Positions 2,368 through 47,616 of a stretch of 64,000 nucleotides of DNA are shown piece after piece. Every line of letters starts with the position of its first letter. Position 1 is the first letter of the stretch. Source of the stretch: an uncultured Gammaproteobacteria bacterium (lineage in GTDB: Bacteria; Patescibacteriota; Patescibacteriia; VMEV01; CAYQCH01); contig CAYGRO010000001.1 in assembly GCA_964352335.1 (NCBI GenBank), positions 31,830 to 95,829 of the forward strand, given 5' to 3'. The notes beneath the pieces were generated by a model. It was not told the DNA's origin and made no database searches. It worked only from the letters and a program-made list of their open reading frames with translations. Position numbers and translations under genes: made by a program.

Positions 2368-3168
2368 ATGAAAAAACTCGCACCACTTATTGCGCTTTTG
2401 GGCGTAGTTATCCTTATTTACGTTGTTACACAAAACTTTAAAAGTGGACAAGAAGCACAAGCCCCATTTATTGATAAATCAATGGAAAAATCTATGGAAG
2501 AAAGCCAGGATATTTTGATTACGCCAATTTCACATGCATCCGCACTATTAGATTGGGAAAATGTCATCATTTATATGGACCCAGTTGGAGGAGCTGAAGC
2601 ATTTGCGGGTCAACCCTCTCCAGACATTGTCCTTGTAACAGATATTCATGGTGATCATTTAAATATGGAAACACTTGAATCCGTCTTAACTAATGACACG
2701 ATTTTAATCGCACCAAAAGCTGTTTCTGAAGAATTACCTATTCAATTACAAAAACGAGTACTTGTTTTGAACAATGGAGAAATAACAACACAATTAGGTT
2801 TCGATATCGAAGCCATTCCAATGTATAACTTACCAGAATCAGATGATGCTTTTCATATAAAAGGGCGTGGAAACGGGTATGTCTTAGAAAAGAATGGTAA
2901 ACGTGTCTATATTGCAGGTGATACGGCAGATATCCCAGAGATGCGTAACCTAAAAAATATTGATATTGCTTTTGTACCAATGAACCTTCCCTATACAATG
3001 ACGGTAGAATCAGCAGCAGATGCAGTATTAGAATTTATGCCTAAACAAGTTATTCCCTATCACTTTAGAGGGCCTGACGGTTTAAGCGATATAAATTTAT
3101 TTAAACAACTTGTTGATGCCGGCGAAAAAGAGATAGAAGTTCGATTGCTTGATTGGTACACACAATAA
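2368..3168 (+). CDS. Secreted MBL-fold metallo-hydrolase
   Basis: N-terminal signal/transmembrane segment, a DIHGDH metal-binding motif (HxHxDH variant), and later His and Asp residues. Confidence 0.55.
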   Translation: MKKLAPLIALLGVVILIYVVTQNFKSGQEAQAPFIDKSMEKSMEESQDILITPISHASALLDWENVIIYMDPVGGAEAFAGQPSPDIVLVTDIHGDHLNMETLESVLTNDTILIAPKAVSEELPIQLQKRVLVLNNGEITTQLGFDIEAIPMYNLPESDDAFHIKGRGNGYVLEKNGKRVYIAGDTADIPEMRNLKNIDIAFVPMNLPYTMTVESAADAVLEFMPKQVIPYHFRGPDGLSDINLFKQLVDAGEKEIEVRLLDWYTQ

Positions 3169-9854: not shown

Positions 9855-10103
9855 TTACTTACGATGCGAACACCCTGGCCAACAACAAGGACGCCGCTTC
9901 CCTTCTTCTAATTCCTCACAGGTCCTACGTATACGACGCTCTCGTGTTTTTTCTTGTTTCGCATCTTCTACCCAACAAATAAATTCATTTCGAGCTAGTG
10001 GAGTAATATCAAGCCAAGCTGCTTGCACGTTTTTATTACGTGCCAGAGCCTTTTTTAAGTCAGCTGGTAATTTATGAACAACTCCACTAGGTAAAACCGT
10101 CAT
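9855..10103 (-). CDS. YdeI/OmpD-associated family small protein
   Basis: Shows the sequence pattern conserved in this family (…WLDITPLARNEFICWV…). Confidence 0.5.
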   Translation of the reverse strand: MTVLPSGVVHKLPADLKKALARNKNVQAAWLDITPLARNEFICWVEDAKQEKTRERRIRRTCEELEEGKRRPCCWPGCSHRK

Positions 10104-11788: not shown

Positions 11789-11980
11789 TTATTTTTTAAT
11801 TTGCTCAATATCGTCTTCTTTTTTATTGAAGAAAATGTATAAACCAAGAGCAATAAACAATAAAGCCCAAATGATTCCCCAAACACCACCTTCTTTAAGT
11901 GAAGAAAGTGATGCAAAAAAGATAGATACCCCAAAAAGGGTAATGACTGTTCCAGTAATAATGCGGCTAAGTGTATTCAT
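11789..11980 (-). CDS. Small two-transmembrane membrane protein
   Basis: 63 aa, hydrophobic. Confidence 0.5.
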   Translation of the reverse strand: MNTLSRIITGTVITLFGVSIFFASLSSLKEGGVWGIIWALLFIALGLYIFFNKKEDDIEQIKK

Positions 11981-15306: not shown

Positions 15307-15738
15307 ATGGACAGCATTATTTACAACCTCTCCAGCAACGAATGGTACAACATCGAGTTCACCACTAACAAGGTAGACGAGTCGGACACTCGGCGAAAGC
15401 ACATGTTCAGGGTAGTCCTGATCATCACAACCATCCGACAATTTCTGGATGTCGGTATCCCCATGATCCAGAAGGCTATCGTCGATATGGGCATCGACGA
15501 CGGCGACGACTGGAACGAGATCGGAAAAAACCTGGTCTCGAAATTCGGTGAAACGTGCGAGCACGTCCTCGGGTTCTTCGATTCTCGAGAAACCGAGCCC
15601 GAAGCGATCAAAGAGGCACTGGAAAGCTTCAAGCTGAACCTGAACTGTGAAGACACTCGCGCAGTGACCTTCATGTTCCAGCCACAGCTCTACGCGGCAA
15701 TGAAGGAAGCGGTCGACTTAACGACCCCACACATCTAG
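15307..15738 (+). CDS. Hypothetical protein within a higher-GC patch
   Basis: A 143-aa ORF with local GC clearly above its surroundings. It is preceded by a ~700-nt stretch with no convincing ORF. Confidence 0.4.
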   Translation: MDSIIYNLSSNEWYNIEFTTNKVDESDTRRKHMFRVVLIITTIRQFLDVGIPMIQKAIVDMGIDDGDDWNEIGKNLVSKFGETCEHVLGFFDSRETEPEAIKEALESFKLNLNCEDTRAVTFMFQPQLYAAMKEAVDLTTPHI

Positions 15739-17967: not shown

Positions 17968-18675
17968 ATGAATACAACCGAACTTCGTTGGTCTACTTTC
18001 GAACAAAACGTTATCAACCAAGCTAGGGAGATGATATCTGATAACCTAGAGGATAAAACCGTCATCCCCCCTGACTCAAGAATTCACATACTCTCACCTG
18101 GAGAGTTCAACAATACAGTCATCAAGCCTGAACAACGTGGGTATGTAGATGCAATTGTAAGCAAAGAGCATCTCTACATTAAACGAACAAGAACAAAGTC
18201 TCGTTTTATCCAACTCTTCTCGCATGAACTCCTTCACTTCGTTTCATTTTTAGGCCCTGGAAAAGTAGGAATGAATCGTATCGTTGGCTCGCATCGATAC
18301 TTCGAAGGCTTCGATGAGGCCGTGACGGAGCTGTTTGCGATTAACTTTCGTCAGCTACTGGCCAGGCGTATCAGTGCTCACCACATGACACAACGAGCCT
18401 TGAGAGACACGCATGCTTATGTCCCCGCAATCCTTCTTGTAAAAGCTCTTATTGCAAGGTCAGACAAAGAAGGAACGAAGCAGATTCCACACAGGCTCTA
18501 TCGTGACTACATTGAAGGAACTCAGCATGTCCTAGCTTCCTTCAACTATCACATACCTGGATCCTGGCAAGCCCTCAAACATATGGGCAAGTCAGATGAA
18601 GAAGCTACCCGTGTCGCAACAGAGCTCGGCCTCAATGAAGTGCTTGAAGAACTTATGCTCATCAGGACAAACTGA
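17968..18675 (+). CDS. Hypothetical HExxH-motif protein (putative zinc metallopeptidase-like) in a moderately GC-enriched patch
   Basis: HELLH motif; GC of about 46%, above flanking DNA. Confidence 0.45.
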   Translation: MNTTELRWSTFEQNVINQAREMISDNLEDKTVIPPDSRIHILSPGEFNNTVIKPEQRGYVDAIVSKEHLYIKRTRTKSRFIQLFSHELLHFVSFLGPGKVGMNRIVGSHRYFEGFDEAVTELFAINFRQLLARRISAHHMTQRALRDTHAYVPAILLVKALIARSDKEGTKQIPHRLYRDYIEGTQHVLASFNYHIPGSWQALKHMGKSDEEATRVATELGLNEVLEELMLIRTN

Positions 18676-19240: not shown

Positions 19241-19333
19241 TTTTTTACGAAATGACCGAAAGGCGGTCATTTTCTGATAGAAAAATCTGGCTTGTGGGCT
19301 CCGAGGTAGCTCAGTGGTAGAGCAGTTGGCTGT

Positions 19334-19946
19334 GAAACACTTATATCTGTCCCCATTCTTTATAACTAAAGTCTGGTATGGCAGAGAAAAGAACCTATCG
19401 CGACCGCGCAGAATATCTCAAAAAAGCTGTTGCAAAACGTAGACGAAAGTTACGTGAACAAGCTGTTGAGTATATGGGCGGTAAATGTCAACGCTGTGGC
19501 TATAAAACTTGCATCGAAGCATTAGATTTCCACCATCTTGATCCTCGTGAAAAAGAATTTGGAATATCTGCATCAGGAATGACTCGTTCTTGGGAACGTA
19601 TCAAAACTGAGCTAAATAAATGCATCATGATTTGTGCAAATTGCCATCGCGAAGAACATGCGAAAATTAAACGCAGCTTTAACGAGTAATCGTTATCGAA
19701 AATTGGGTGAATTCGGGGAAGCCTGTTAAATGGTAATCCCGAGCCAATCCTTCGCCGGGAAGTTACTCCCGCAAGCAAGCTTAGCCAAAAATGGCAGGCC
19801 TGCCTGCCGTAGCTTTAGCGAAGGCAGGTGTAGAGACTAGTAGGTGAGTCCCAACAATAATCCTACAATAGCGCCCAATACCCCATAGCTTTATGCGACG
19901 GGGTAATGAGATAGTCCACCCCATTATGAAAATAATGGATAATGTG
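19334..19946 (+). other. Group I intron (IC3-like) in the tRNA-Asn anticodon loop, between positions 35 and 36
   Basis: The core contains GGTGTAGAGACTAG and GAGCCAA..CTTCG..CCGGGAAG, matching the Azoarcus/cyanobacterial tRNA-intron catalytic core. The 5' exon ends in U and the intron ends in G. Confidence 0.75.
19378..19689 (+). CDS. HNH homing endonuclease encoded within the group I intron
   Basis: CQRCGYKTC…DFHHLDP…N…CANCH gives CxxC / HH / N / CxxC-H HNH motifs. The ORF lies inside a peripheral intron region. Confidence 0.8.
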   Translation: MAEKRTYRDRAEYLKKAVAKRRRKLREQAVEYMGGKCQRCGYKTCIEALDFHHLDPREKEFGISASGMTRSWERIKTELNKCIMICANCHREEHAKIKRSFNE

Positions 19947-20001
19947 TAACCAATTGGTCGTGGGTTCGAGTCCCACCCTCGGAGCTTGCTAGCTAGATTC
20001 T

Positions 20002-20031
20002 AAAAACACGCGATATCCGCGTGTTTTTTTA
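20002..20031 (+). terminator. Terminator AAAAACACGCGATATCCGCGTGTTTTTTT after the tRNA-Asn 3' exon
   Basis: Perfect hairpin followed by a T-run. Confidence 0.75.
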
Positions 20032-20089
20032 TTCTTACCTATTGACAAGCGCAATATTTTATGGAGAAAACGTGTATAATAAAGTACAT

Positions 20090-21115
20090 ATGAAATATAA
20101 AATACTCACAATCTCTCTCGTTCTAAGCTTATTCCCTATTACAGGGCAAGCACAAACTCAAGCAGCCCAAGTTATTGATATTGCTTTTCCTGTACAAGGT
20201 GGAGCCGATTATATCGATGACTTTGGTGATCCACGCTATCAACACTCTCATGAGGGCAACGACTTAAAAGCTCCAAAGCATACAGCTGTAATCGCTGCTA
20301 ATGACGGTATTGTCTCTTGGGCTCCTGTACCAGAACCAAGTTATGGTTGGGGTATTTGGGTTAAAGGAGACGATGGCTATACCTATGTCTATATTCACTT
20401 AAATAACGACACCCCAGGAACAGATGATGGAAACGGTGGCGTTGAACATGCCTATGCAGATGGAGTACGCCAAGGTTCTCGAGTTACTCGTGGACAAATC
20501 ATCGGTTGGCTCGGAGATAGTGGAAATGCAGAAAATGCAGGATCACATGTCCATTTTGAAATTAGAGATACAGAAACAGATACACCTATTAATCCCTACC
20601 CTTCTTTAAAAGCTGCTGAAGGAGAAATCCCAGAACTAGAAATTAATTTTGACCCCGAAGCTGCCGCAATATCTGCACCAACGATTAACCATGAACTTGG
20701 TTTACAGTCAGCGACAACTGCTGCTAGCAATTGTGAATCAAATAGTCTCATTAAATCTCCAACTTCTTCTTCTGTCTACTATTGTGCTGCTAATGGAAAA
20801 CGATATGTCTTTTCCAATAGTGGGACTTACTTTAGTTGGTATGCAGACTTTGCTTCCGTTTTAACTATTACAGAAGAACAACTTGCTTCTATCCCACTAG
20901 GTGGAAATGTCACCTACCGCCCTGGAGTAAAAATGCTCAAAATACAAAGTGACCCCAAAGTATACGCAATCGACACAAATGGAACCCTAAGATGGGTCAC
21001 TAGCGCCGTAATAGCCGAAGAACTCTACGGAACAAACTGGAATAAATCTATCGACGATATTTCCGAAACTTTTTTCATCAACTACCAAACCGGAGAAGAT
21101 ATTCTCTACGAATAA
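20090..21115 (+). CDS. Secreted M23-family (LytM-like) metallopeptidase with a C-terminal extension
   Basis: Signal peptide MKYKILTISLVLSL. M23 motifs HEGND (HxxxD) and SHVHFE (HxH). Confidence 0.75.
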   Translation: MKYKILTISLVLSLFPITGQAQTQAAQVIDIAFPVQGGADYIDDFGDPRYQHSHEGNDLKAPKHTAVIAANDGIVSWAPVPEPSYGWGIWVKGDDGYTYVYIHLNNDTPGTDDGNGGVEHAYADGVRQGSRVTRGQIIGWLGDSGNAENAGSHVHFEIRDTETDTPINPYPSLKAAEGEIPELEINFDPEAAAISAPTINHELGLQSATTAASNCESNSLIKSPTSSSVYYCAANGKRYVFSNSGTYFSWYADFASVLTITEEQLASIPLGGNVTYRPGVKMLKIQSDPKVYAIDTNGTLRWVTSAVIAEELYGTNWNKSIDDISETFFINYQTGEDILYE

Positions 21116-21122
21116 CCACCTC

Positions 21123-21188
21123 CTCCCTCTCTTGAAAAGGGAGCCTGCCTGCCGGCAGGCAGGGGTGCCCCTTCAGGGGCGAGAGGGT
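21123..21188. repeat. GC-rich palindromic repeat module (CCCTCTC..GGGAG, CCTGCCTGCC-GGCAGGCAGG, GCCCC-ttca-GGGGC)
   Basis: Perfect 10-bp inverted repeat. The family recurs at 306, 32701, 33281, 37949, 46533 and inside the intron at 19787. Confidence 0.65.
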
Positions 21189-21223
21189 TCATGTAAGACC
21201 AAAACACGAATGTAATTTCTCTA

Positions 21224-21362
21224 AGCGCTAACGGGGTCCGGGGTAATAGTTGCTTCTTAGAAGTAATATAGTTGCATGCACATACAAGAAGCTCCTATTA
21301 CCCCGGCGACTTTTTTGCTTCGTTTTTTGGTCGTTCAAAAAATGAAGGCCTAGCGGCGAGCG
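21224..21362 (+). ncRNA. Conserved ~138-nt structured element, copy 1 (candidate novel ncRNA)
   Basis: A second copy lies at 35213-35350 with conserved blocks (AGCGCTAAYGGGGTC, GCTTCT…AAGAAGCTCC, TTTTGCTTCGTTTTT…CAAAAAATGAAGGCC, GCGGCGAGCG). A compensatory helix is preserved: CCGGGGTAATAG/CTATTACCCCGG here versus CTGGGGGAA/TTCCCCCAG in copy 2. Confidence 0.6.
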
Positions 21363-21394
21363 TCAGCAATAAGCTAATGAACAATAATCAGTAC

Positions 21395-21428
21395 AACAAA
21401 CACAAAAAAGCTCTGAACAATTCAGAGC
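21395..21428. terminator. Bidirectional terminator AAAAAAGCTCTGAACAATTCAGAGCTTTTTT
   Basis: Perfect hairpin with flanking A- and T-runs. Confidence 0.75.
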
Positions 21429-21453
21429 TTTTTTAAATGCATTGTTTAAAACC

Positions 21454-21942
21454 TTAGTTTGAAGGCAATACCAAAGGATCACTCATTGCTGGTCCTGTCC
21501 CCTCTTCCATAAGTTCATCATCCATACATCTTGGCATTTCATATTCAGGACAGAATTTTCTTGTACAAGCAGCTAATGCTTCTTCCCCTTCTACATCGGC
21601 TCTTACACAATTATTACATCCATCAGAAAAACTCTTACAAGAAGCATCAATCATCGTTTTCCAACTATTTTGATCATAAGAAGGTGTCATCATTTCTTTC
21701 ATTTCATCCTTGAGACTTAACATTTCTGATTTCATTTGCATATAAGCATCTTTATCCATCATATGCTTACCATCCATTTTAGAATTATTCATTGGTGAAT
21801 AAACACTTGCAACAATAATACCACCAAAAACGAGGACAGATAATAACGTTAAAATACCTAAAACGATATCTAAAATAATAAGTCCTTTTGTATCAGGGCG
21901 TTCTTGTATTTGTTTTTGTTTCTCTTTTGTTTTTTTAGCCAT
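21454..21942 (-). CDS. Membrane-anchored Met-rich, Cys-rich hypothetical protein
   Basis: One transmembrane segment, then KHMMDKDAYMQMKSEMLSLKDEMKEMM, then a Cys-rich tail (CKSFSDGCNNC…C…C…C). Confidence 0.5.
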   Translation of the reverse strand: MAKKTKEKQKQIQERPDTKGLIILDIVLGILTLLSVLVFGGIIVASVYSPMNNSKMDGKHMMDKDAYMQMKSEMLSLKDEMKEMMTPSYDQNSWKTMIDASCKSFSDGCNNCVRADVEGEEALAACTRKFCPEYEMPRCMDDELMEEGTGPAMSDPLVLPSN

Positions 21943-30622: not shown

Positions 30623-30798
30623 AGGCTTCTATATTACCACAATCCCCCCCCTGATACCTCTATAAATCCCTCCCCGTTAACAAGGCTTGGCTGTGTCACG
30701 TGAATCGCACGGTTAAATAGGGTGGCAACGTATAAGCCTCGTCACCTAGGCCACGTTGCCCACGTAAAAATCGCACTATTACTAGTGCGATTTTTACG

Positions 30799-30883
30799 TG
30801 GTACCCGAGGAGGGACTCGAACCCTCAAGCCCGAAGGCATACGATTTTGAGTCGTACGCGTCTACCAGTTCCGCCACTCGGGC
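30799..30883 (-). tRNA. tRNA-Leu(CAA)
   Basis: Reverse complement GCCCGAGTGGCGGAACTGGTAGACGCGTACGACTCAAAATCGTATGCCTTCGGGCTTGAGGGTTCGAGTCCCTCCTCGGGTACCA, with a long variable arm and anticodon CAA. Confidence 0.85.
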
Positions 30884-32691: not shown

Positions 32692-32700
32692 TTCGTGACC

Positions 32701-32776
32701 CCCTGCCTGCCAGCAAGCCCCTCGTCCAATCCACTTTGTGGATTAGACGTTTCCCTCCCTTTTCAAGAGAGGGATT
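32701..32776. repeat. GC-rich repeat module containing an inverted-orientation copy of the CCCTCTC/GGGAGGG hairpin
   Basis: tccctcccttttcaagagaggga is the reverse complement of the motif at 33285; a degenerate CCTGCCTGCC is also present. Confidence 0.55.
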
Positions 32777-33280: not shown

Positions 33281-33360
33281 CCCCTCTCTTGAAAAGGGAG
33301 GGAAATGTGCCGTGCCCACAGAGCACAAGCGAGGGAGCTTGCCTGCCGGCAGGCAGGGGT
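33281..33360. repeat. GC-rich composite repeat with all three modules (CCCTCTC-GGGAGGG, GTGC..GCAC, CTTGCCTGCC-GGCAGGCAGG)
   Basis: Closest copy is 306-366 plus 21139-21160. Confidence 0.65.
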
Positions 33361-33420
33361 TCATATTTGACAAACCTCATCCAAAAGCACAAGATAAAAA
33401 TGGAAGAAGGAGGTTTCCAA

Positions 33421-34386: not shown

Positions 34387-34842
34387 ATGAAAAAACTTCT
34401 CATCTCACTCGCCCTTCCTCTTCTCACCGGCTTTGCTGGGTCATTTTTTACTATGAACTCTATCCCAACCTGGTATGCAACGCTAAACCGACCAGAACTT
34501 GCCCCCCCAAATTGGATATTTGGCCCAGTCTGGACTACGCTTTATTTGCTCATGGGGTATGCATGTTATCTTATTTGGAAAAGTAACCATAAACAGAAAA
34601 AACAAGCACTTACACTTTATGGTATTCAATTAGGCCTTAATGCAATTTGGTCACCAATCTTTTTCGGAGCACAAAATTTTGCTTACTCACTAGGAGTGAT
34701 TGCTCTATTAGACCTAACCGTTATTGCTACTATGATTAGTTTTTCCAAAATAAACAAAAAAGCATCCATGCTCCTCCTCCCTTATTTAGCATGGATCCTT
34801 TTTGCAAGTTATTTAAACTATCAATTTTTTATTCTCAACTAA
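34387..34842 (+). CDS. tspO: TspO/MBR tryptophan-rich sensory protein
   Basis: …PPNWIFGPVWTTLYLLMGYA… and a five-transmembrane architecture. The track ORF begins earlier because it reads through the tRNA. Confidence 0.8.
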   Translation: MKKLLISLALPLLTGFAGSFFTMNSIPTWYATLNRPELAPPNWIFGPVWTTLYLLMGYACYLIWKSNHKQKKQALTLYGIQLGLNAIWSPIFFGAQNFAYSLGVIALLDLTVIATMISFSKINKKASMLLLPYLAWILFASYLNYQFFILN

Positions 34843-35141
34843 TCTGCTTTTTTCCCTGTTACACGTTGAGAAATTTTATTCGAATACTTTCCTAAAATAA
34901 TGGTAATAATCACCACAATAATTGTAATAACAAAAGCATAAATAAACTGCGCCCAAACACTTTCTTCTGGCTTAGGAAAAAACAAAGTAAATGCCGCTTT
35001 AATCGCATCATTCCAAGCCAAAGCAGCCACCAAACCAAACCCAGCTGCAGCCAATGTATTAATTTTAGAAATAACACTCTCTGCTAATTTAGCAGCCTTA
35101 TTCGCCTCCTCTTTCGTTTGTTCTTTTTTCTTTTTCGCCAT
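34839..35141 (-). CDS. Small membrane protein, hypothetical
   Basis: 100 aa with a Lys-rich N-terminus and two transmembrane segments. Confidence 0.5.
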   Translation of the reverse strand: MAKKKKEQTKEEANKAAKLAESVISKINTLAAAGFGLVAALAWNDAIKAAFTLFFPKPEESVWAQFIYAFVITIIVVIITIILGKYSNKISQRVTGKKAD

Positions 35142-35212
35142 AAAAATAGATTAACTTGTATTACCATCATACAAAATTTGTCTTCAATCAACAAGCATAC
35201 GTACAATCAAAA

Positions 35213-35350
35213 AAGCGCTAATGGGGTCTGGGGGAATTGCGCTTCTGAGAACTAAATAGATGTGCAAATCAAGCAAGAAGCTCCCAAGTTCCCCCAGCGG
35301 GTTTTTGCTTCGTTTTTGCCCGCCCAAAAATGAAGGCCCGCGCGGCGAGC
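35213..35350 (+). ncRNA. Conserved ~138-nt structured element, copy 2
   Basis: See 21224-21362; conserved blocks and a compensatory helix. Confidence 0.6.
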
Positions 35351-35439
35351 GCATTGACCAACATTCTTTAATAAGAAAACATACACAAATAGAAACACCA
35401 CCGCCTTACTCTTCTCTTGCGAGTTTTCAGGGGTGGTGT

Positions 35440-36912
35440 TTACCGGCCGTTAAGCCAGTTGCGAAAGGAAGTAAAGAAGCTGGTGGGCTTCAATTTGATT
35501 TCGCTAGAGAGGCAAGCTTCGAGGGCTTGCTTCATCTCTTCGGGGGTCTTGTACCTTTTTTCTGGGCTTTTCTCCATCGCTTTCTTGAGGACCTTACAGA
35601 ACCTCTTCGTCAGCTTTGGTGACCCCTCGGGCAAAAGGTCATTTGGATGCGGAGGCTTCCTATAGAGCACCGCCTTGAAGAGTTCACCCAGATTCTTGCC
35701 ATGGAATGGCTTTTGCCCTGTTGCAAGGTAGAACAATGTCCCCCCCACAGAGCAAAGATCTGACATGATCGTCACCCGCTGACCGTCCACCTGCTCAGGG
35801 GACATGTAGTCGGGTGTGCCGATGATCAACCCGGCGATGGAAAGGGTTTCCGTCTCCGTATTAATCGTGACAAGCTCTTCAATGACGTCCAAAGAAACTC
35901 CTCCACCGTCTCGCTTGTCCTCGGCATTACTTCGAGAGCAGCCATAGTCAAGCAATTTGATGGTACCGTCACTCTGGATCACGATGTTTTCAGGCTTGAT
36001 GTCACGATGCACAATTTTCAGCACATCGTGAGCAACCTGTAGCACCGAGCATAACTGAAGCCCAATATGAATAGCCTCCACTTCAGAAAAGGCTCCCTTG
36101 CTCTGGACAGCTTGTTTTAGGTTTTGGCCCTCAACAAACTCTTCAACAGAAACAAGTCCAAAGTCCTCTACCAAAAGCGCGATTGGACGCACCGAGTAGG
36201 GAGAGAGAATCTTTCCCTGCAACTCGAAGGCCCGACTCACGCGCTTACACAACTCGAGCACGGACTCAGAGTCGCCAACGGTATTGAAGTGAATTTTGAT
36301 AGCCACGTCTTGCTGTGTCGCCAGGTCAAGACCACGAACAACTCGGCCGTTGCTTCCAAGACCGATTTGCTCAATGAGCTTGAAGCGATCGTGCAAGACA
36401 GCCTTTTTCGCGATGGCGATATTGATACGACCAGTGACCAACTTTGCAGCAAGGTCACATGACTCCACTTGGACAGAGTCATTCACCGTATCAGCCCCAT
36501 CACAGTCAGCGAGATGTGCAGCAACCTCATCGACAACAGGCGTCCCAATGGACACCACCTCGGACGGGTTGTTCACAACAACTTCAACGGAGCTAGGAAT
36601 TTGACTCCGCGAAACCAATCGCACAGTCCCACCTGTATCGCTCAGCCTTGCCAGCTCTCGCCGACTAAAGCGATCTGAAGCAGTGCGAGCAATCTCCTTA
36701 GCAACATTGGGCTCTTCTGGCTTCTTCAAATGACCCTGGTTGGTGATCGAAAGAAGAAGCTTGCACTTCGCACACTTGAATTCGAGAATCCCCTCCTCGA
36801 TCATGGGGTTAATGTCACGAACCCAAGAATAGCGCTTAGCCGTTTTGGCCGGGCTACACCGTGGACACGGTTGATACAATGGCACCTGAGGGCGCCGCTT
36901 TTTGTCAGTCAA
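35440..36912 (-). CDS. Hanks-type Ser/Thr protein kinase with an N-terminal zinc ribbon; high GC (about 52%); TTG start with a strong SD
   Basis: HRDIKPENI, DYG and GTPDYMSPE motifs. N-terminal CPRC…CAKC. AGGAGG lies 7 nt upstream of TTG. Confidence 0.75.
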   Translation of the reverse strand: MTDKKRRPQVPLYQPCPRCSPAKTAKRYSWVRDINPMIEEGILEFKCAKCKLLLSITNQGHLKKPEEPNVAKEIARTASDRFSRRELARLSDTGGTVRLVSRSQIPSSVEVVVNNPSEVVSIGTPVVDEVAAHLADCDGADTVNDSVQVESCDLAAKLVTGRINIAIAKKAVLHDRFKLIEQIGLGSNGRVVRGLDLATQQDVAIKIHFNTVGDSESVLELCKRVSRAFELQGKILSPYSVRPIALLVEDFGLVSVEEFVEGQNLKQAVQSKGAFSEVEAIHIGLQLCSVLQVAHDVLKIVHRDIKPENIVIQSDGTIKLLDYGCSRSNAEDKRDGGGVSLDVIEELVTINTETETLSIAGLIIGTPDYMSPEQVDGQRVTIMSDLCSVGGTLFYLATGQKPFHGKNLGELFKAVLYRKPPHPNDLLPEGSPKLTKRFCKVLKKAMEKSPEKRYKTPEEMKQALEACLSSEIKLKPTSFFTSFRNWLNGR

Positions 36913-38204: not shown

Positions 38205-41200
38205 TTATCTAATTGTAATAATCTCATTTTCACCAATATACTTGATAGAAGGATCATCAAGTTTTATCAAACTCAACCCCTCAACAAGATACTCCCCAGC
38301 AGTTGCCACAGTACGTGCCCTATATCGAATAAGAATACGTGGACATTCTTTATTTAGAACAAGAAAAGCTTTTGCTTTATGCGCAGATGTATCATAAGCC
38401 GACTGTTCACATCGAGAATATTCCGTCCCCCAATTCATTCCACGAGTAATCGCTTGTAAACCACTCGGTAATAGATCCGTTAAGGCATAATTTCCATAGG
38501 CAGTAGAAGCATTAGTGCGCACCTCAATTTCTATATCAATTTCTTTATTCGGATTAATGACAGTTGTAGGTCCAGCACCTTGTTCATAAATACGGCTCAC
38601 CGTTACTCCCTCAATACTTTGTGGAGTTTGTCCTGCTACATCATATTGATAAAGAGCTTGTACATTTCCTCTAACAGATTCTAAAGAAAGTGTTTGCAAT
38701 TGTTCTTTTGTGAGATTAAGACCAAAGCTTTCAAAACCTTTTAATGTAACAAATTGTTCTTCTACGCCTGCAATCACTACAAAAGACATTTCAGAAATCG
38801 GCTGTCGCTCTAAACGCAATTCCCAGAATCGGGTATATGAAATAGGGTCAACAATACTTTCTTGCGCATTAAGATATGCATCAAACTCTTTCCAAGAAGA
38901 ATCTCCAACGGTAAATGCAATCAATCGAGTTAACTCTGTATACCACTGGATTTGAGTTGTACTATCAATTCCTTCCGCTTGAAAATAACGTTGTCCATTT
39001 TCTACTGCAGTATTCACCAAGATATCATCAAGAATTAATCGTGCTTGATTATAATCTCCATAGAGAATAAAGGCATCCGCCAATAAAACTCTGTCTTCTA
39101 ATTGAATATTTTCATTAGCTATAAATGCTTTTAATTCTGCATAATATGGCTTTTGCATACCAGCCAAACCACGCAATGCAAGCGAAATTTCATTTGGAGT
39201 TGAATCATCAGACAAGAGAGATTCAAAATAAGCTTGTAAGTCTTGTGTCTGAGCTTTATCACCTAATAATGTCGCAATAGAAGAACTTAATGTACTATCA
39301 CCACTTCCAAATGGAAATCGAGCATAACCACCATCTGGGTGTTTGTACTCAGAACCAATAATATCCTCTCCACCAAAAGCTGGAAGATCAAAATATTGTT
39401 GCTTCAATTCAGTAATTTTTTGTTGAGCGACGATATAATCTAATTTACTTGCACAAGAACATAATCGAGATAAAGCTGTATAGGCATTTGCACCTAAAGG
39501 CGATGCAAATCTTACCGAAACACGCCCCTCAGCTTCTTCTGGAACAATAGCTTGCCAATTTTCTTCTATAGTAACAACCTCTTGCTTTTGAGTTAAACTT
39601 CTTCCTGGCAATACAGAAAATGTTTTGATAATGATGTCTTCATATTCCCCACTTAGTGCACGTATTGCATAAACATATTTCCCTACACCAGTTGTTTCGA
39701 TCGGAAAATCAACAATAGCAATAGACTCTGCTTTTTCTTGCTTCGTAGAAATCGGAAAATCACCCAAACTATAGTGTTTCCCCTCTTCTGCCAATAATGG
39801 ACCATAAAGAGAATAAGTAACTTCTGACTTGGCAGAAAGCTGGTCAGAATAATTTCGTGCTGACACAATGATATCGTCTCCGAGAATATAAGAATCACTT
39901 TGAATGGCTTGCACAACAAATGATTGTGCAACCGTAATTTCCTTTTTCCCTAACCCACCTTGATACTGATTTGTACCAGTCGTCGCAACAATCACCCAAG
40001 TAGTAATATTATCAGGCAACTCAAACTCAACGACTCCTTTTCCATTTTTATCTGTTTGTACAAATTGATAGGTCGCTTGTTCCAAGAAATTTACTCGTTC
40101 ATCTCCTCCTCCGCCCCCCATGCCATCTGGACCCAATGTAGAATTATGTGTTGCGGTATTAACAAGAATTCTTTCGTATTGCCGACTGAATAAATCATTC
40201 AATGGATTTTGACTCCCCGCAAAAACATCTAAATCTAAGTAAGCTTTATCTAAAACATTTACATTCACCAAAGTTTCTACAGGATTCCCGTTCGTATCAG
40301 TAATAGTAATTTCTGACTTCACTTTGTCTCGAATAGCATAATCATTTTTATCTGTATCTACAGAAATAGTTAATTCATAGGGATCAGAACTAAGGTTAAG
40401 CTCTAGTAATCGATAATGTGTAAAATAGATTTTCCCTTCATAAACTGTCGCAGCGCCAATATGAACATTTGGTAAGTACTCTTCAGTAAGTTCAATGTCT
40501 TGACGGCTTGTCATTGAAACAAAATAGTTACTAAGATTTGGTGAAAGCGTAAAAAATAGTGTCGCAGCATCATTTGGTAACGTACTCATATTTGCTTCCC
40601 CTAAAATAGCCTTCACACCAATTGAATCACCAACTTGATAAGCTTGAACATCCTCATTTTCTAAATCCACCCAAAATTCTTGTTCAAAAAATGAGCTCGT
40701 TCCATTTTGACGAATAAATGGTTCGTCTGTTTCATTTTCTACATAGACTTTTCCAAATGGCAATGAATAATCAGTAAGATAGGTATAATCTAAATCATAC
40801 CGACCTAAAGAATCCAAAGCTTTCACAATAATTTTATAATTTGTATTTTCTTGTTTGGTAAATGAGAAATTCACTTCCCCTAATTCATTCGTTAAACCAG
40901 TTTGGTTTTCAACTGTCGTTTCATTGGTAGAAAAATCATAATAAAAATCTGTTTCATTTGTGAGTGGATTAAGCTCAGAAAATAAAGGAGACTTAGATGA
41001 TGTAATAGCAATAACGCTCGCTTCAAATGGAACACCTTGAGCGATATGCATTTTTTTATCTCCATCGCTTGGATATTGTTCATCATTTGTTAAATATTCA
41101 ACCCCCTTAACTTTAGCTGAGACCTCTACCTGTTGATTCTTCTCATTCGTTTCTATTTTAATATCAGTATAATCTTGAGTTACTGTCCAATAAGCATTTC

Positions 41201-43469
41201 CAACAACTTCCGTTTCATAACTACCAATTGGAATAACTCTAAGCAATGCTAAATTACTAGAATTACAACCATACTCTCCGCATGAATCAATACGAGAAGG
41301 AACCGTTACTTGTGCCTCTCCTAATTCATTTGTAGAAACAACCCCAGTATAATCACCAGAAATTTGTAAATCAATAAATCGGGCTGGTGTTCCATCAAAT
41401 CGAGCTGTTGAAATAGTTACGAGATTACTTTCCCCTGCTTCTATTCTTTGATATTGAGGATTTACAATAAGAGAAAGTTCAGGTGTAGCAAATACTGTTA
41501 CCTCAAATGATTGTTCTTTAAAGTAATGCTCACCATCATAAATGGTAAAAGAATAATAGCCATCACGTAAATCCTGTAATTGCATCGAACCTGTAAAAAA
41601 CCCTTGATCATTAACTGAGACAATTTCTTCTTGTACTTTCACATTACTATATGATCCATATTGGGCATTCCATAAGGTAACTTCAGCTCGAACCTCGTTT
41701 AATGATCCACCTTCACGATCGATAAGCCCCCAATATCGAATGGTGTCATCTGGGTGAACTAAATATTGATCAAGGTGAAAAAAACCAGTGTATTCGGGTT
41801 GTTGATCTTTTGGATCATTCCAAATTCTCACAGGATGTATTGTTGTCTGCTCACCTTGCACAAGCTTAAATGCTTCTTGTTGATTTAATTGAGCAATTTG
41901 AATCGCAGAAACAGTCACAATTCCTTCTTGATTACTAGTTCCAAGTAATTGACCACGAGAATAAACACTTACTCCTTCAAGTGGTTGATTTGATTCAGTA
42001 TCAACAGTCCAAACTAAACCTGATGTTTCTGATAAAAGAATATAAGCTCCAACAGAAGAAACAGACCAATACAATAAATCCACTTGCCCCGCAATAGAAG
42101 CCTCTACTAAATAAACTCCTTCAGTTTGTAAAGCATTTAATGCAAATAAATTTCTTGAATATTCTTCTTCTCCATTTATAGAATATTCTGCAATTGGATT
42201 CGTTAATCCAAATTCTTGTAGCAATTGCTTTGAGGCTTGTGTTTTGATTTGTGTTGGAATCCAATTATCTAATCGAGAGGTTTTTGCAATAACTTGATCT
42301 ACAACCGTCGCATCTAAACGATGCACTTTTACATTAAGCGGTGCATCTTGTGGCAATCTATAACCATAACCAGAAACTTGGACAGATTCCCCTGGCTTAC
42401 TTTGTAAAACTTCAGATGTATAACTGAAACTAGAACCCACTAATGACGCTGACTCACCAGTTGTAAACGAAAATTGATAATCTGAATTTAATTGCCATTC
42501 AGATTGATTTGCAGATGCAGGAATAAATGAAGGCTGAACCCCAAATCCATTTTTAAGTGTGATTGTATATAAAACGTCTTTTTCCCATGGAGTTTCTGGT
42601 ATAAGTTTAATCGTTCTAAAATCTTGTTCGATTCTTACTGAATGATTTGGTTGGATCTCTAAATAAGAAGAAATATCTTGCGTCTTGGTATGACTTACTA
42701 TAATTTCTACTGCATTATTTACAGGAACCCCTACACTTCTATCTGCTGGTGCTGTAGATTGAATCTTAAAATGATCCGCAACTTCAAATACCCAATGATA
42801 GGTAAAAGGTTCTAACCCCTCTTCTCCATCGATAACGGTTGCCGCAGAAACTTGTACAATTTCTCCTTGTCTTAAAGTCTCTACAGGATCGATAGTATAT
42901 TCATAACCACGCTTTATTGTTTTTATTGTAAAAGCAGAATCATTTGAAAAACGTAGATACTTTTCTAAGTCGTTTTTAGAAATTTTTGACTGACTTGTAA
43001 GAAGAAAATCTGTCTCTTCAGATATAACTCCAAAATTATCTACTACTTCTGGGGTAATTGTAAAATTATCATGAGCATAAACAGCTGGTATTAAAATCCC
43101 ACCACTTTCTCCAGGTTTAATGATATTAATAAGCCCACTTTGTTGAAAAAGAGAAAAAGCAACCACTGCAGCAACGGCAACAAGAGCAACTCCAGAACCT
43201 GCTAATGTTTTAATATGTAAAGCTCGCCAAATTGTTTTTTTCGTTTTTTGTCGCTTTGTTTCTTTTTGATGAAGCAAAGCTAAAACTTTCTTTTCTAAAT
43301 TTTCTTTAAATTCCATGCGATAAGGTTTATTTTCGTGACGAGCAGAAATCAATAATTTAGCTGTATCAACAATTGCTTGTTCATCACTATCTAATTCAGC
43401 ACGATCTTCCGCGGAAATATTTCCACGTTTTAAGAGGGTGTCGACAATTTGTTGAAATCTTTTTTTCAT
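38205..43469 (-). CDS. Giant (1754 aa) single-pass membrane-anchored extracellular protein: short cytoplasmic N-terminus, one transmembrane segment, very large beta-rich ectodomain
   Basis: A TGA-free ORF of 5.3 kb. N-terminal ~75 aa charged segment, then a transmembrane helix (LAGSGVALVAVAAVVAFSLF). It lies 14 nt downstream of an ECF sigma factor gene. Confidence 0.7.
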   Translation of the reverse strand: MKKRFQQIVDTLLKRGNISAEDRAELDSDEQAIVDTAKLLISARHENKPYRMEFKENLEKKVLALLHQKETKRQKTKKTIWRALHIKTLAGSGVALVAVAAVVAFSLFQQSGLINIIKPGESGGILIPAVYAHDNFTITPEVVDNFGVISEETDFLLTSQSKISKNDLEKYLRFSNDSAFTIKTIKRGYEYTIDPVETLRQGEIVQVSAATVIDGEEGLEPFTYHWVFEVADHFKIQSTAPADRSVGVPVNNAVEIIVSHTKTQDISSYLEIQPNHSVRIEQDFRTIKLIPETPWEKDVLYTITLKNGFGVQPSFIPASANQSEWQLNSDYQFSFTTGESASLVGSSFSYTSEVLQSKPGESVQVSGYGYRLPQDAPLNVKVHRLDATVVDQVIAKTSRLDNWIPTQIKTQASKQLLQEFGLTNPIAEYSINGEEEYSRNLFALNALQTEGVYLVEASIAGQVDLLYWSVSSVGAYILLSETSGLVWTVDTESNQPLEGVSVYSRGQLLGTSNQEGIVTVSAIQIAQLNQQEAFKLVQGEQTTIHPVRIWNDPKDQQPEYTGFFHLDQYLVHPDDTIRYWGLIDREGGSLNEVRAEVTLWNAQYGSYSNVKVQEEIVSVNDQGFFTGSMQLQDLRDGYYSFTIYDGEHYFKEQSFEVTVFATPELSLIVNPQYQRIEAGESNLVTISTARFDGTPARFIDLQISGDYTGVVSTNELGEAQVTVPSRIDSCGEYGCNSSNLALLRVIPIGSYETEVVGNAYWTVTQDYTDIKIETNEKNQQVEVSAKVKGVEYLTNDEQYPSDGDKKMHIAQGVPFEASVIAITSSKSPLFSELNPLTNETDFYYDFSTNETTVENQTGLTNELGEVNFSFTKQENTNYKIIVKALDSLGRYDLDYTYLTDYSLPFGKVYVENETDEPFIRQNGTSSFFEQEFWVDLENEDVQAYQVGDSIGVKAILGEANMSTLPNDAATLFFTLSPNLSNYFVSMTSRQDIELTEEYLPNVHIGAATVYEGKIYFTHYRLLELNLSSDPYELTISVDTDKNDYAIRDKVKSEITITDTNGNPVETLVNVNVLDKAYLDLDVFAGSQNPLNDLFSRQYERILVNTATHNSTLGPDGMGGGGGDERVNFLEQATYQFVQTDKNGKGVVEFELPDNITTWVIVATTGTNQYQGGLGKKEITVAQSFVVQAIQSDSYILGDDIIVSARNYSDQLSAKSEVTYSLYGPLLAEEGKHYSLGDFPISTKQEKAESIAIVDFPIETTGVGKYVYAIRALSGEYEDIIIKTFSVLPGRSLTQKQEVVTIEENWQAIVPEEAEGRVSVRFASPLGANAYTALSRLCSCASKLDYIVAQQKITELKQQYFDLPAFGGEDIIGSEYKHPDGGYARFPFGSGDSTLSSSIATLLGDKAQTQDLQAYFESLLSDDSTPNEISLALRGLAGMQKPYYAELKAFIANENIQLEDRVLLADAFILYGDYNQARLILDDILVNTAVENGQRYFQAEGIDSTTQIQWYTELTRLIAFTVGDSSWKEFDAYLNAQESIVDPISYTRFWELRLERQPISEMSFVVIAGVEEQFVTLKGFESFGLNLTKEQLQTLSLESVRGNVQALYQYDVAGQTPQSIEGVTVSRIYEQGAGPTTVINPNKEIDIEIEVRTNASTAYGNYALTDLLPSGLQAITRGMNWGTEYSRCEQSAYDTSAHKAKAFLVLNKECPRILIRYRARTVATAGEYLVEGLSLIKLDDPSIKYIGENEIITIR

Positions 43470-44981: not shown

Positions 44982-45113
44982 CTCCGCATAATTTGGTACT
45001 CTGACCGATTTCAGCGCTTTGCGCAGTCGATACAGAGTTTCCCTTGCCAGGACAAGCTTGGGGATGTGAGGAGTATAGCTGAAGAGAGAGAAAAGTCAAT
45101 TTAAAAAAAACAA

Positions 45114-45217
45114 AAATAAAACCCCACAAAATGCGGGGACTTATTTTCCTAAATACTTGGTGGACCTGAGGCCTCGAGGCCCCACCTCCTCGCCCCTCGA
45201 GGGGGAGGCGCTCTACC
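45114..45217 (-). repeat. Pseudo-tRNA-Ala 3' fragment plus terminator hairpin, repeat unit 1 (degenerate)
   Basis: tggtggacc…cctcctcg-CCCCTCGAGGGG-aggcgctctac plus the hairpin AAAACCCCACAAAATGCGGGGAC. Confidence 0.65.
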
Positions 45218-45219
45218 TG

Positions 45220-45489
45220 TCAATAATAGATATGATCTGTATCATTTTCTTTAATCCATTCTATTTTCGTTTTAAATCCTTTGGATGATTTTATAAATTT
45301 TTCATAATTCATTGCTTCTGTTTTTGAATCAAACATTTTATAACTAATCAACTTCAATGGCCTTCTGCCTTTAGTAGATTTCGTTAAACCTTCATTATGA
45401 GCATATACTCTGTTTTTAATATCCGTCGTATAACCAATATAGTACCTATTGTCCTTAAGTGATTTTAAAATGTATACGTAATGAATCAT
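45220..45489 (-). CDS. Small GIY-YIG nuclease-domain protein
   Basis: YVYILKS…YIGYTTD…R…HN matches the GIY-YIG core. 89 aa. Confidence 0.7.
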   Translation of the reverse strand: MIHYVYILKSLKDNRYYIGYTTDIKNRVYAHNEGLTKSTKGRRPLKLISYKMFDSKTEAMNYEKFIKSSKGFKTKIEWIKENDTDHIYY

Positions 45490-45504
45490 AGATTATGTCA
45501 AAAA

Positions 45505-45605
45505 TAAAACCCCACAAAATGTGGGGACTTATTCCTAAATACTTGGTGGACCCGACAAGACTCGAACTTGCCACCTCCTCGCCCCTCGAGGGGGAGGCGC
45601 TCTAC
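45505..45605 (-). repeat. Pseudo-tRNA-Ala 3' fragment plus terminator hairpin, repeat unit 2
   Basis: Retains the T-arm and acceptor identical to tRNA-Ala, but the anticodon loop is replaced by the palindrome CCCCTCGAGGGG. Confidence 0.7.
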
Positions 45606-45677
45606 ATATTAATTGATTTTCATTAGAAATTCTTAGAAAACAAAAACCCCATGGCTGGGGCAATGATTATCCACACT

Positions 45678-45753
45678 TGGTGGACCCGACAAGACTCGAA
45701 CTTGCCACCTCCTCGGTGCAAACGAGGCGCTCTACCAGATGAGCTACGGGCCC
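45678..45753 (-). tRNA. tRNA-Ala(UGC)
   Basis: Reverse complement GGGCCCGTAGCTCATCTGGTAGAGCGCCTCGTTTGCACCGAGGAGGTGGCAAGTTCGAGTCTTGTCGGGTCCACCA, with the G3·U70 Ala identity pair. Confidence 0.9.
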
Positions 45754-45884
45754 ACTAAACGTGGATTGGACTATTTTTAAAGTGAACAAAAAACCGCTCT
45801 TGCGATTTGATGAAATACTAGCATAAAGTGTCTTGATTTTGCAAGATTTGCCAGATCCCCTGTTTTTGCTAGACTGCTTATACT

Positions 45885-46532: not shown

Positions 46533-46600
46533 GAGCCCTCCTGCCTGCGATAAAGCAAAGCGGGAGGGCTCTTATGCGTGAGTCTCGTCGGGAGACGAGT
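46533..46600. repeat. GC-rich hairpin cluster (GAGCCCTCC…GGAGGGCTC; CTCGTC-GGGA-GACGAG)
   Basis: Includes the CCTGCCTGC motif. It lies at the 3' end of the high-GC gene. Confidence 0.5.
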
Positions 46601-46632
46601 TAGATTAGGCTGCTCACGAGCCTAGTGGATGG

Positions 46633-47616
46633 CTAGCCGGCGTAGTTGCCGTTGTTGCCGTCACCGAAGCTCTGACCGTAGATGGTCTTGGGCTCGGTCT
46701 GGAGCATGCCCTTGAGGAAGCGGTCCGTGTCGCCGACGGCCTCGTCGAGGTTGGCGATGATCGAGTCGATCAGGCGGGTCGACTGGTCGGTGTCGACGAG
46801 CTGCTGACGGATCATCATGAGGGCGAAGTACTTGCCACCGATCCGAGAGAAGATCGCGCGGTTGTAGCCGAAGGGCTCGAGCTTGAGCGAACCCTCGACC
46901 AGGCTCTCGCTGATCGCCTGGAACTGGCGGGTCCCGTAGGTCACGGGGGTCCAGGTCAGGTCGCAGCTGGAGAGGTTGTAGTTGGCCGTCACGAAGACCG
47001 GGATGGCCACCTTGGCACCCTGCACGACCAGGAACGTCACGACGTCCTGCTCGATGAAGGTGTTGGGGTCGAAGTCGATCACGCGGGTCGTGCTGCCGAT
47101 GTTGACCTTGTCGTTGTCGACGACCGTGACGTGCTGGAAGCGCACGTTCTTGATCGCCTTGGTGATCGAGCCGCCGTTCAGCAGGTTCAGGAAGGAGATC
47201 AGCGAGTTGTCGAACTGCTCGGTCAAGCCCATCTGGGCAATGACCCAGGCAGGGATGGTGTTGAACACCATCTTGGTCTTGGAAGCGGCGCCGATGGAGC
47301 GCTTGATCTTGAGGACGTTGGCCGGAGTGATCAGGCCGTACTCCTGCAGCTGCTCGAGGAAGACGCGCGGCGTCATGTTGGTGTCGCTGTCGACCTCGAA
47401 GACGTCGTGCAGGATCTCCGCGTTCTGGGTGGAGATCGTGATCTGCGTGGTCACGTTGCCGTTGTTCGGCTTGGAGGTCTTGAGAGGGGTCTCGGTGACC
47501 GCGGTGATCGTGGTGTTCGTGCGATCGCTGACGCGCTTCGCCATGGAGGTGAAGGTGTCGACGATGGCCGCAGTGAAGAGAACGAGAACCGGGTGCGAGA
47601 GGGTGTGAGCGATCAT
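46633..47616 (-). CDS. Hypothetical 327-aa protein with extreme GC (about 60%) and GC3-biased codon usage
   Basis: GGAG-N6-ATG. The high GC coincides exactly with the CDS. A second 327-aa ORF in another frame (46661-47644) is an artefact of GC richness. Confidence 0.55.
   Translation of the reverse strand: MIAHTLSHPVLVLFTAAIVDTFTSMAKRVSDRTNTTITAVTETPLKTSKPNNGNVTTQITISTQNAEILHDVFEVDSDTNMTPRVFLEQLQEYGLITPANVLKIKRSIGAASKTKMVFNTIPAWVIAQMGLTEQFDNSLISFLNLLNGGSITKAIKNVRFQHVTVVDNDKVNIGSTTRVIDFDPNTFIEQDVVTFLVVQGAKVAIPVFVTANYNLSSCDLTWTPVTYGTRQFQAISESLVEGSLKLEPFGYNRAIFSRIGGKYFALMMIRQQLVDTDQSTRLIDSIIANLDEAVGDTDRFLKGMLQTEPKTIYGQSFGDGNNGNYAG

Follow-up and report, generated by a model that had tools for sequence, protein, structure and literature searches.

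A structured element in two intergenic regions

The stretch of DNA analysed here, referred to as the window, comprises 64,000 nucleotides of contig CAYGRO010000001.1 (positions 31,830 to 95,829) and carries two intergenic copies of a structured element of approximately 140 nt. The best topoisomerase I matches were to Candidatus Uhrbacteria and Patescibacteria, and the source genome is that of a Candidatus Uhrbacteria (Patescibacteria). Copy 1 (c1) is found between convergent genes, an M23 peptidase gene (20021-21115, + strand) and an open reading frame (ORF) of 162 amino acids (21454-21942, - strand). Copy 2 (c2) is placed between a DUF5654 gene (34839-35141, - strand) and a Ser/Thr kinase gene (35440-36912, - strand).

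An earlier reading of the letters alone (the sequence-only reading) had located the copies at 21224-21362 and 35213-35350. Both were present on the + strand, with limits that differed by 1-2 nt: the whole repeated unit, running from AGCGC to GAGCGT, spans 21224-21363 in c1, and c2 occupies 35214-35352. On alignment of c1 with c2, similarity began and ended sharply at these limits, and the two copies, which reside in the same genome, were 84% identical. The shared blocks that had been listed, AGCGCTAAYGGGGTC, GCTTCT...AAGAAGCTCC, TTTTGCTTCGTTTTT...CAAAAATGAAGGCC and GCGGCGAGCG, were found in c1 and c2, and a T-run with GCTTCG...TGAAGGCC was likewise common to both. The GCTTCT block was confirmed, with its loop, given as 27-29 nt, corrected to 29 nt in both copies. 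The GC content of the element is 45-53%, as against ~36% for the genome and the window.

We built a single-copy covariance model (R1) from c1 alone, with helices read from the sequence, and used it to search the window. The model picked up c2 at 78 bits (E=6e-22), and c1 itself scored 190 bits with R1, by construction, and 161 bits with model R2. When the 64 kb were searched with filters off, no third copy was detected; the remaining matches were reverse-strand echoes of the c1 hairpins (E=1e-7 and 0.013) or had E-values of at least 0.025. Weak model matches at 30664-30818, 11884-11921 and elsewhere were discarded as noise, one of them falling in a coding region. An exact 15-mer from the shared blocks occurred in the window at c1 and c2 only.

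Fold of the two window copies

On the + strand, c1 forms a long hairpin, P2 (21238-21306), with an outer helix of 12 perfect pairs (CCGGGGTAATAG/CTATTACCCCGG, 21238-21249 with 21295-21306) and an inner helix, GCUUCU/AGAAGC (21252-21257 with 21287-21292), which closes a loop of 29 nt (21258-21286). P2 is preceded by the junction AACGGGGU (21230-21237), which together with the next C forms a GGGGUC motif, and is followed by a second junction, consisting of CGAC, six U and a G (21307-21317). A hairpin with a UCGU loop, P3 (CUUCGUUUUUUGG/UCAAAAAAUGAAG, 21318-21347), and the 3' block GCCUAGCGGCGAGCGU (21348-21363) complete the unit. In the minimum-free-energy fold, GCGCU at 21225-21229 also pairs with AGCGU at 21359-21363, and this putative, weakly supported helix was called P1.

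The corresponding helices of c2 are P1 at 35215-35219/35348-35352, the P2 outer helix at 35228-35239/35285-35297 (CTGGGGGAATTG/CAAGTTCCCCCAG, 12 pairs and one bulged A), the P2 inner helix at 35241-35246/35276-35281 and P3 at 35308-35318/35325-35335, with the U-run at 35302-35306. Folding energies were -54.1 kcal/mol for c1 (z=-4.4 against dinucleotide shuffles) and -52.0 kcal/mol for c2 (z=-1.7). A pseudoknot of GGGGUC with any of the loops was considered and rejected, as no conserved partner was present.

Copies in related genomes

Relatives were found by walking through neighbouring proteins, and are lettered B to E, with A denoting the species of the window; the percentages listed with TopA or M23 are protein identities to the window. 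Species B (TopA 88%) carries copy c3 between the MauE gene and an ABC transporter gene (L056 1479-1623, the same as L066 14487-14631; E=8e-27). In species C (M23 85%), copy c4 begins 33 nt past the M23 stop codon (L069 1279-1403; E=1e-27). A partial copy, c5, makes up the last 60 nt of a contig of species D (M23 67%; L071; E=0.012), and its P2 is recognisable from GGGGGATTT/AAATCCCC and CTTCT/AGAAG around a 31-nt loop. The AGCGC ends and both end blocks are missing from c3, as is GCGGCGAGCG, which is the same in c1 and c2. The GGGGTC motif is invariant across c1-c4, and the second junction is kept in all four as CGRC followed by 5-7 U.

A related mosaic repeat with a P3-like hairpin is present three times in species E (L065, TopA 67%), and two of these copies keep the overall layout with a short P2. 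At a further site in the same contig (site 'D', 9862-9935), a P3-like hairpin is followed by CGGGGTC, with the invariant motif, and a short hairpin, which is the opposite module order. Five further relatives, of which 22, 22, 14, 3.5 and 21 kb were searched, yielded no copy. All copies found come from a narrow clade of Candidatus Uhrbacteria.

The mosaic repeat of species E measures ~200 nt and lies at 15400-15576, 18225-18393 and 2438-2620 (reverse strand) of L065. It consists of a 75-nt hairpin module with short P2-like and P3-like hairpins; in the third copy the 75-nt module is on the other side. Two of the copies, 3 kb apart, are ~95% alike by eye.

Helices maintained by two-sided changes

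The compensatory changes described in the sequence-only reading were upheld, and they extend to the copies of other species. Between c1 and c2, each with 12 pairs in the P2 outer helix, three positions are altered on both strands and one is altered to U.G. All cells of this helix are paired in c1-c3, three of its pairs are double-changed among these copies, and further changes are seen in c5. In P3, a run of six A in c1 is reduced to five in c2, and the opposite strand has six and five U, respectively, so that one U-A pair has been lost on both sides. Across eight P3 hairpins from four species, 11-14 pairs are kept through UA to CG, GU to AU to CG and CG to GC changes, with one G.U pair invariant among those of the window type. 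The stems are nearly invariant in sequence and the loops are variable.

A structure-aware alignment of c1-c3 had 98% of its cells paired and contained seven double-changed pairs; none of 500 shuffles, and no slid register, came near the observed pairing. Four of the seven double-changed pairs belong to P1 and are contributed by c3 alone. P1 is thus not established: c1 and c2 are identical there, and the ends of c3 (AAGAA/UUCUU) are unrelated, short and A/U-rich, and possibly pair by chance. The unit ends that make up the P1 region are a direct repeat of a palindrome. The P2 outer helix and P3, maintained by two-sided changes, are solid. Covariation was visible only with a structure-aware alignment or with folds of single sequences; RNAalifold on a plain MAFFT alignment recovered inner P2 and P3, misregistered outer P2 and displayed no covariation.

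Strand asymmetry and sequence conservation

Wobble cells on the + strand comprise 8 G.U and 1 A.C, and in c1-c4 the + strand fold is better than that of the - strand by 2.7-7 kcal/mol. The fold is strand-specific, on the + strand.

Copies c2 and c4, from different species and different loci, are 94% identical (115/122), and all their differences are at the 5' edge or within the P2 loop. By comparison, DNA identity between the M23 genes of these genomes is 82%, falling to 61% at third codon positions. The sequence of the element is conserved well above neutral, that is, it is under selection. A protein-coding gene or small ORF was rejected, since the runs of U and A contain 1-nt indels and the copies have no frame in common. 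A search with the concatenated open frames of the element against 5.8 billion proteins returned nothing at E<=10.

Promoter-like sites and terminators

A promoter-like sequence, TTGTCT-18-TACAAT (35178-35207, + strand), ends 6 nt upstream of c2; it matches the consensus at 9 of 12 positions and was identified by consensus only, and 0.8 sites of that quality are expected by chance in the region. A weaker sequence, TTCATG-17-TGTAAT (21188-21216, + strand), ends 7 nt upstream of c1. It was missed by the promoter scan, having G at position 2 of the second hexamer, and was read by eye, so that it is suggestive. In c1, c2 and c4 a -10-like hexamer stops 6-7 nt short of the first conserved base; at c4 this hexamer, AAAAAT, is the only promoter-like feature.

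The strong terminator that had been placed at 21395-21428, after c1, does exist, but at 21404-21434 and with activity predicted in both directions. This intrinsic terminator begins 40 nt past c1 and serves the convergent gene at 21454-21942; it is possible that it also forms the 3' end of a c1 transcript. The terminator scan called neither P2 nor P3, and the U-run begins 4 nt after the P2 stem where 0-2 nt are required, so that the element does not qualify as a standard intrinsic terminator.

Searches for described families

Rfam 15 held no match for the element, and at gathering thresholds the window yielded only a group I intron and tRNAs. Searches of c1 and c2 against Rfam 15 at E<=10 gave only terminator-like or chance matches far under threshold. 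Transfer-messenger RNA (tmRNA), signal recognition particle RNA, RNase P, 6S RNA, riboswitches, self-cleaving ribozymes and HEARO/omega RNA were rejected by these searches or by reading of the sequence. A retron msr-msd was rejected because no reverse transcriptase is present, and the template and variable repeats of a diversity-generating retroelement were rejected because the copies are outside coding regions and do not differ at adenines.

Repeat classes were examined in the same way. A miniature inverted-repeat transposable element (MITE) of the Correia/NEMIS type was not supported, since terminal inverted repeats of at least 10 nt are lacking: the 5' end reads AGCGCTAAC and the reverse complement of the 3' end (A/G)CGCTCGCC, so that the ends share only a palindromic CGCT core and the inverted repeat is no longer than the 5-nt AGCGC. 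The AGCG(Y) at both ends belongs to the unit, because it is the same in c1 and c2. No target-site duplication was seen in the flanks of c1 (CTCTA|...|CAGCA) or c2 (AAAAA|...|ATTGA). The window holds 2 copies per 64 kb at 84% identity; empty sites exist, and the indels exceed the size of the element. A repetitive extragenic palindrome (REP) or REPIN was not supported, the hairpin-adjacent motif being GGGGTC and not GTAG, and the unit measuring 140 nt as against a palindrome of 20-40 nt. The Y1_Tnp domain of REP-associated tyrosine transposases (RAYT) had no match in 28 scanned ORFs or in the Pfam tables of the relatives' loci. A palindrome-associated transposable element (PATE) derived from IS200/IS605 was not supported, since the left flanks differ (CTCTA, AAAAA, TTAGG) and P2 and P3 are dissimilar except for a GCTTC/GAAGC motif. 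An integron attC site was rejected as well: CGCTAAC departs from RYYYAAC at R and at the first Y, no 3' GTTRRRY is present, and there is no integrase or array. Among window ORFs of at least 230 amino acids, which were scanned with Pfam or identified as housekeeping except for a 1754-amino-acid ORF (38205-43469) and an alternative frame (46661-47644), no transposase, Y1/HUH protein or integrase was found, and in the gene tables of the relatives' loci no transposase adjoined a copy.

A scan of the genome_contigs collection with AGCGCTAAYGGGGTCYGGGG returned only a MITE-like family of alphaproteobacterial metagenome-assembled genomes (MAGs). Scanning metagenome contigs with CGCTAAYGGGGTC-N99-129-GCGGCGAGC, a pattern too narrow in that c3 lacks both end blocks, gave 21 loci, all of them chance matches in GC-rich coding DNA. 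Viral scans gave chance matches or none, and there was no phage or plasmid match. Since it lacks the defining features of MITEs, REP, PATEs and attC sites and matches no Rfam family, the element is undescribed. The proposal of a novel non-coding RNA or a mobile-element terminus is supported as regards the selected structure, the strand-specific fold and the lack of an Rfam match, and is not supported as regards the terminus of an insertion sequence or MITE.

Interpretation of the element

A clade-specific family that is selected, dispersed and folds on the + strand is established. We put at about 0.5 the probability that the element acts as RNA, a reading favoured because of the strand asymmetry, the above-neutral conservation, the -10-like boxes of c1, c2 and c4, the orientation shared with upstream genes and the absence of transposon hallmarks. 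The non-coding unit of ~140 nt folds on the + strand into the long bipartite P2 and an A/U-rich P3 with a GC clamp, linked through the conserved sequences UAAYGGGGUC and CGRC-U5-7, which are single-stranded, and the short outer pairing P1 may close the whole fold. According to this reading, each of c1, c2 and c4 would be transcribed from its own weak promoter, with the first conserved base as the start, and c3 by read-through from the upstream gene. The product would be a stable RNA module, serving to bind a protein or to protect a transcript. The units are dispersed paralogues that undergo duplication, loss and homogenisation between loci. The behaviour of the element falls in between that of a multicopy small RNA (sRNA) gene family and that of a transcribed intergenic repeat like REP, BOX or the enterobacterial repetitive intergenic consensus (ERIC).

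A number of observations weigh against action as RNA, and in particular against a simple single-gene non-coding RNA, for which the variable presence, the different subtypes at one locus, the permuted modules and the weak, inconsistent evidence of promoters and terminators are all unfavourable. Strand asymmetry is not proof of RNA, because G.T pairs are tolerated in single-stranded DNA too, and no more than 3 to 5 window-type sequences underlie the covariation. Sites resembling promoters are weak and only consensus matches, and there is none at c3. A good downstream terminator is present at c1 only, and none lies within the repeated unit itself, because the similarity of c1 and c2 stops at GAGCGY. 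Invariant stems with variable loops fit hairpins that are recognised as such; trans-acting sRNAs with conserved seeds usually show the opposite.

The loci themselves give two patterns, one stable and gene-like and the other of turnover, and these conflict. In species A and B a copy is present within the interval between the M23 and HU genes, in M23 orientation; a copy adjoins M23 in species C, and in species D one is found 1.9 kb after M23. Against such stability, c4 occupies the c1 locus and yet is c2-like (81% identical to c1 as against 94% to c2), and the site directly after M23 is empty in species B and in L070 and L071. The spacer between the TspO and kinase genes is also empty in species B, where it measures 85 nt as against ~600 nt in the window. 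The extra DNA of the window there consists of the DUF5654 gene and c2 as one indel of ~510 nt, the right edge of which is the last base of c2. The opposite module order at site 'D' and the occurrence of at least three related mosaic copies in 22 kb of L065 add to the turnover. Finally, each of the four short Logan contigs extending into a copy stops inside it, for which our own rough estimate under random breakage is ~5e-4. This suggests additional copies with 31-mers in common, strain variants or coverage lost at hairpins, and the contig ends hint at further near-identical copies per genome.

The indel was delimited by comparison of window positions 34843-35352 with L056 20899-20984, and the terminator hairpins of the kinase gene in the two genomes are orthologous. 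The flanking sequence ATTGACCAAC (35353-35362) corresponds to ATTGAGCAAAC, which directly follows the TspO stop codon in the empty site, and the same 10-mer is also present 22 nt upstream of c4 in L069, at another locus.

Such turnover may instead indicate a non-autonomous mobile DNA element of the MITE, REP/REPIN or IS200/IS605-PATE type, with hairpins recognised as DNA by a transposase encoded elsewhere and any RNA being incidental. Copies are dispersed in unrelated gene contexts, their presence differs among close relatives, the unit edges are sharp, with the 3' end of c2 at an indel boundary, and a c2 sequence is found at the c1 locus. Conserved stems with variable loops, mosaic or permuted modules with a multicopy relative in a sister species, contigs that stop inside copies and hint at more of them, and other GC-rich palindromic repeats in the same genome are in keeping with mobility, as is a clearly MITE-like family of 230-nt inverted repeats in an alphaproteobacterial MAG, which contains a 20-nt match with a hairpin. 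We consider this explanation less likely than action as RNA, but a serious rival to it. The inverted repeats do not extend beyond the AGCGC palindrome, target-site duplications are lacking, and the three left flanks share no target; no transposase, Y1/HUH protein or integrase was found among the window ORFs scanned or identified (38205-43469 not included), and none adjoins the relatives' copies. Moreover, only 2 copies are present per 64 kb in the window and 1 per 35 kb in species B, the intragenomic copies are 84% identical and not near-identical, a copy is retained in the M23-HU neighbourhood of several species, and the likeness to the MAG repeat is limited to the 20-mer of the search pattern.

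A cis-acting element at the 3' end of the upstream gene, either an unusual intrinsic terminator formed by P2 and the U-run or a barrier to 3' exonucleases, appears improbable. Four of the five copies are downstream of and co-directional with a gene (M23 for c1 and c4, MauE for c3, an amine oxidase for c5), but this proportion is not significant and c2 has no co-directional upstream gene. The base of P2 is GC-rich and precedes U5-7, and no other + strand terminator exists between M23 and c1 or between MauE and c3. However, the four nucleotides CGRC between the P2 stem and the U-run are unpaired, P3 and the 3' block are conserved beyond the U-run, and c5 is preceded by a canonical terminator.

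It is still less probable that the unit is a recombination site or cassette boundary, attC or otherwise att-like, with the folded strand as recombinase substrate and a circular form. The short direct repeat at the ends of c1 and c2 (AGCGC at the start, AGCG(T/C) at the finish), the strand-specific fold, the single indel of c2 with the DUF5654 gene, and the circularly permuted module order of site 'D' and of the MAG repeat, in which the linker ..GCCGCGC-AGCGCTAA.. resembles a junction of the c1/c2 3' end with the 5' end, would suit such a site. Against it stand the lack of attC cores, of a nearby integrase and of a cassette array, and the lack of AGCGC ends in c3; the sole recombinase seen is a serine recombinase of species B, in a separate island ~4.8 kb upstream of c3 and beyond M23. 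A new kind of small mobile structured element, a 140-nt cassette with a circular or tandem intermediate and no known transposase, would be an equally long shot, though a circular intermediate would explain the AGCG(Y) end repeats, the permuted order at L065 9862-9935, the alphaproteobacterial linker and the subtype replacement at the M23 locus.

Other features of the window

GC-rich palindromic repeat modules of a separate family lie immediately upstream of c1 (21138-21190) and at 33332-33360. This second intergenic family is found at 21138-21190, 33294-33373, 319-360 and 32692-32743, with the sequences AGGGAGCCTGCCTGCCGGCAGGCAGGGGT and AAAGGGAGGGAATGTGC...GGGCACAAGCGAGGG, and spurious ORFs in these regions read PAGRQ.

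A group I intron of ~613 nt (19332-19944; Rfam RF00028, 75.8 bits) interrupts the anticodon loop of a tRNA-Thr(UGU) gene (19296-19993), between U33 and U34, and contains an ORF for an HNH endonuclease (19378-19689; Pfam HNH, E=9e-6). ARAGORN missed the unspliced gene and called the spliced sequence tRNA-Thr(tgt). The position of this intron-bearing gene corresponds in species B to that of an island directly upstream of M23 (L066 2541-9706), with genes for a large serine recombinase, an Eco57I-like methyltransferase/endonuclease and HTH_17 proteins. Also in species B, the region between c3 and the ABC transporter gene (L056 1721-1960) has a near-consensus promoter, TTGACA-17-TATAGT, followed ~200 nt on by a GC-rich hairpin and U-tract (AGCGCCTCGGGAAACCGGGGCGCTTTTCG), which lie ~40 nt upstream of the start codon and are possibly an attenuator or riboswitch-like leader.

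Next to a tRNA-Ala gene of the window is a tandem duplication of ~390 nt (45100-45760), in which the 3' half of the tRNA (45675-45715) recurs exactly at 45541-45581. The duplication is flanked by two more repeat pairs and looks like the scar of an integration or duplication. Beside it, ~1 kb (46560-47620) has a GC content of 54-65% as against 36% for the genome and includes a 327-amino-acid ORF (46633-47616, - strand) with no Pfam or PHROG match; this segment is probably foreign DNA.

Comparison with known systems

Genomes of the Candidate Phyla Radiation are small, streamlined and mostly without the usual RNA chaperones, and descriptions of their non-coding RNAs or repeat families are, to our knowledge, very few. 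With 94% identity across species, as against 61% at neighbouring synonymous sites, the element is under real constraint, which makes it a good candidate for an RNA that is specific to the clade and has a protein partner. Should it prove to be a dispersed repeat, it would mark points of rearrangement in Uhrbacteria genomes and be a likely cause of assembly breaks. Either way, it provides a defined and testable entry for RNA catalogues, and does not change the view of how these organisms work.

MITEs such as Correia/NEMIS and the PATEs of IS200/IS605 are, like the element, small, structured and dispersed, with filled and empty sites and, for PATEs, strand-specific hairpins. Correia elements, however, have terminal inverted repeats of 26 bp, whereas the element has none, nor a duplication of TA or any other target. 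PATEs insert 3' of a fixed tetra- or pentanucleotide, unlike the element, which has no conserved left target and for which no matching transposase was found.

The family returned by the AGCGCTAAYGGGGTCYGGGG scan, in the Rhodospirillales MAG JAATGE01 (L022-L034), shares that 20-mer exactly, with a hairpin closed by CCCCRG and then CG, and a GGCTTCG..GAAGCC hairpin nearby. The similarity by local alignment covers only the searched 20 nt, the host is of another phylum with 65% GC, and the short hairpin belongs to a terminal inverted repeat of 55 nt; the shared 20-mer may be due to chance or to a shared short module. The repeat itself, of ~230 nt, is found in JAATGE01 and JAATGL01 (Rhodospirillales/Alphaproteobacteria), with 55-nt terminal inverted repeats of two GC-rich hairpins and at least 12 copies in one MAG, and is not in Rfam.

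In behaviour, the element is closest to structured intergenic repeats of the BOX, ERIC and REP type and to multicopy families of paralogous sRNAs, such as Qrr1-5, LhrC1-5 and PrrF1/2. The sRNA families resemble it in having at least two diverged paralogues per genome, in being structured, 100-200 nt long and GC-richer than their surroundings, in a -10-like box just 5' of the first conserved base, and in the presence of one copy in the same neighbourhood across species. They conserve single-stranded seeds and a terminator of their own, however, while the element has variable loops, invariant stems and no terminator within the unit. With BOX, ERIC and REP or bacterial interspersed mosaic elements (BIMEs) of Streptococcus and enterobacteria there is no sequence similarity, and the element has neither the GTAG motif nor the RAYT gene of REP; it is also sparse (2 per 64 kb), its host belongs to the Patescibacteria, and its cross-species conservation of 94% is above what is typical of such repeats. 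It is nevertheless like them in being intergenic, non-coding and 100-150 nt long, with hairpin modules that can be combined in different ways, several diverged copies per genome and compensatory changes in the helices, often in 3' untranslated regions, and these repeats, too, need neither terminal inverted repeats nor target duplications.

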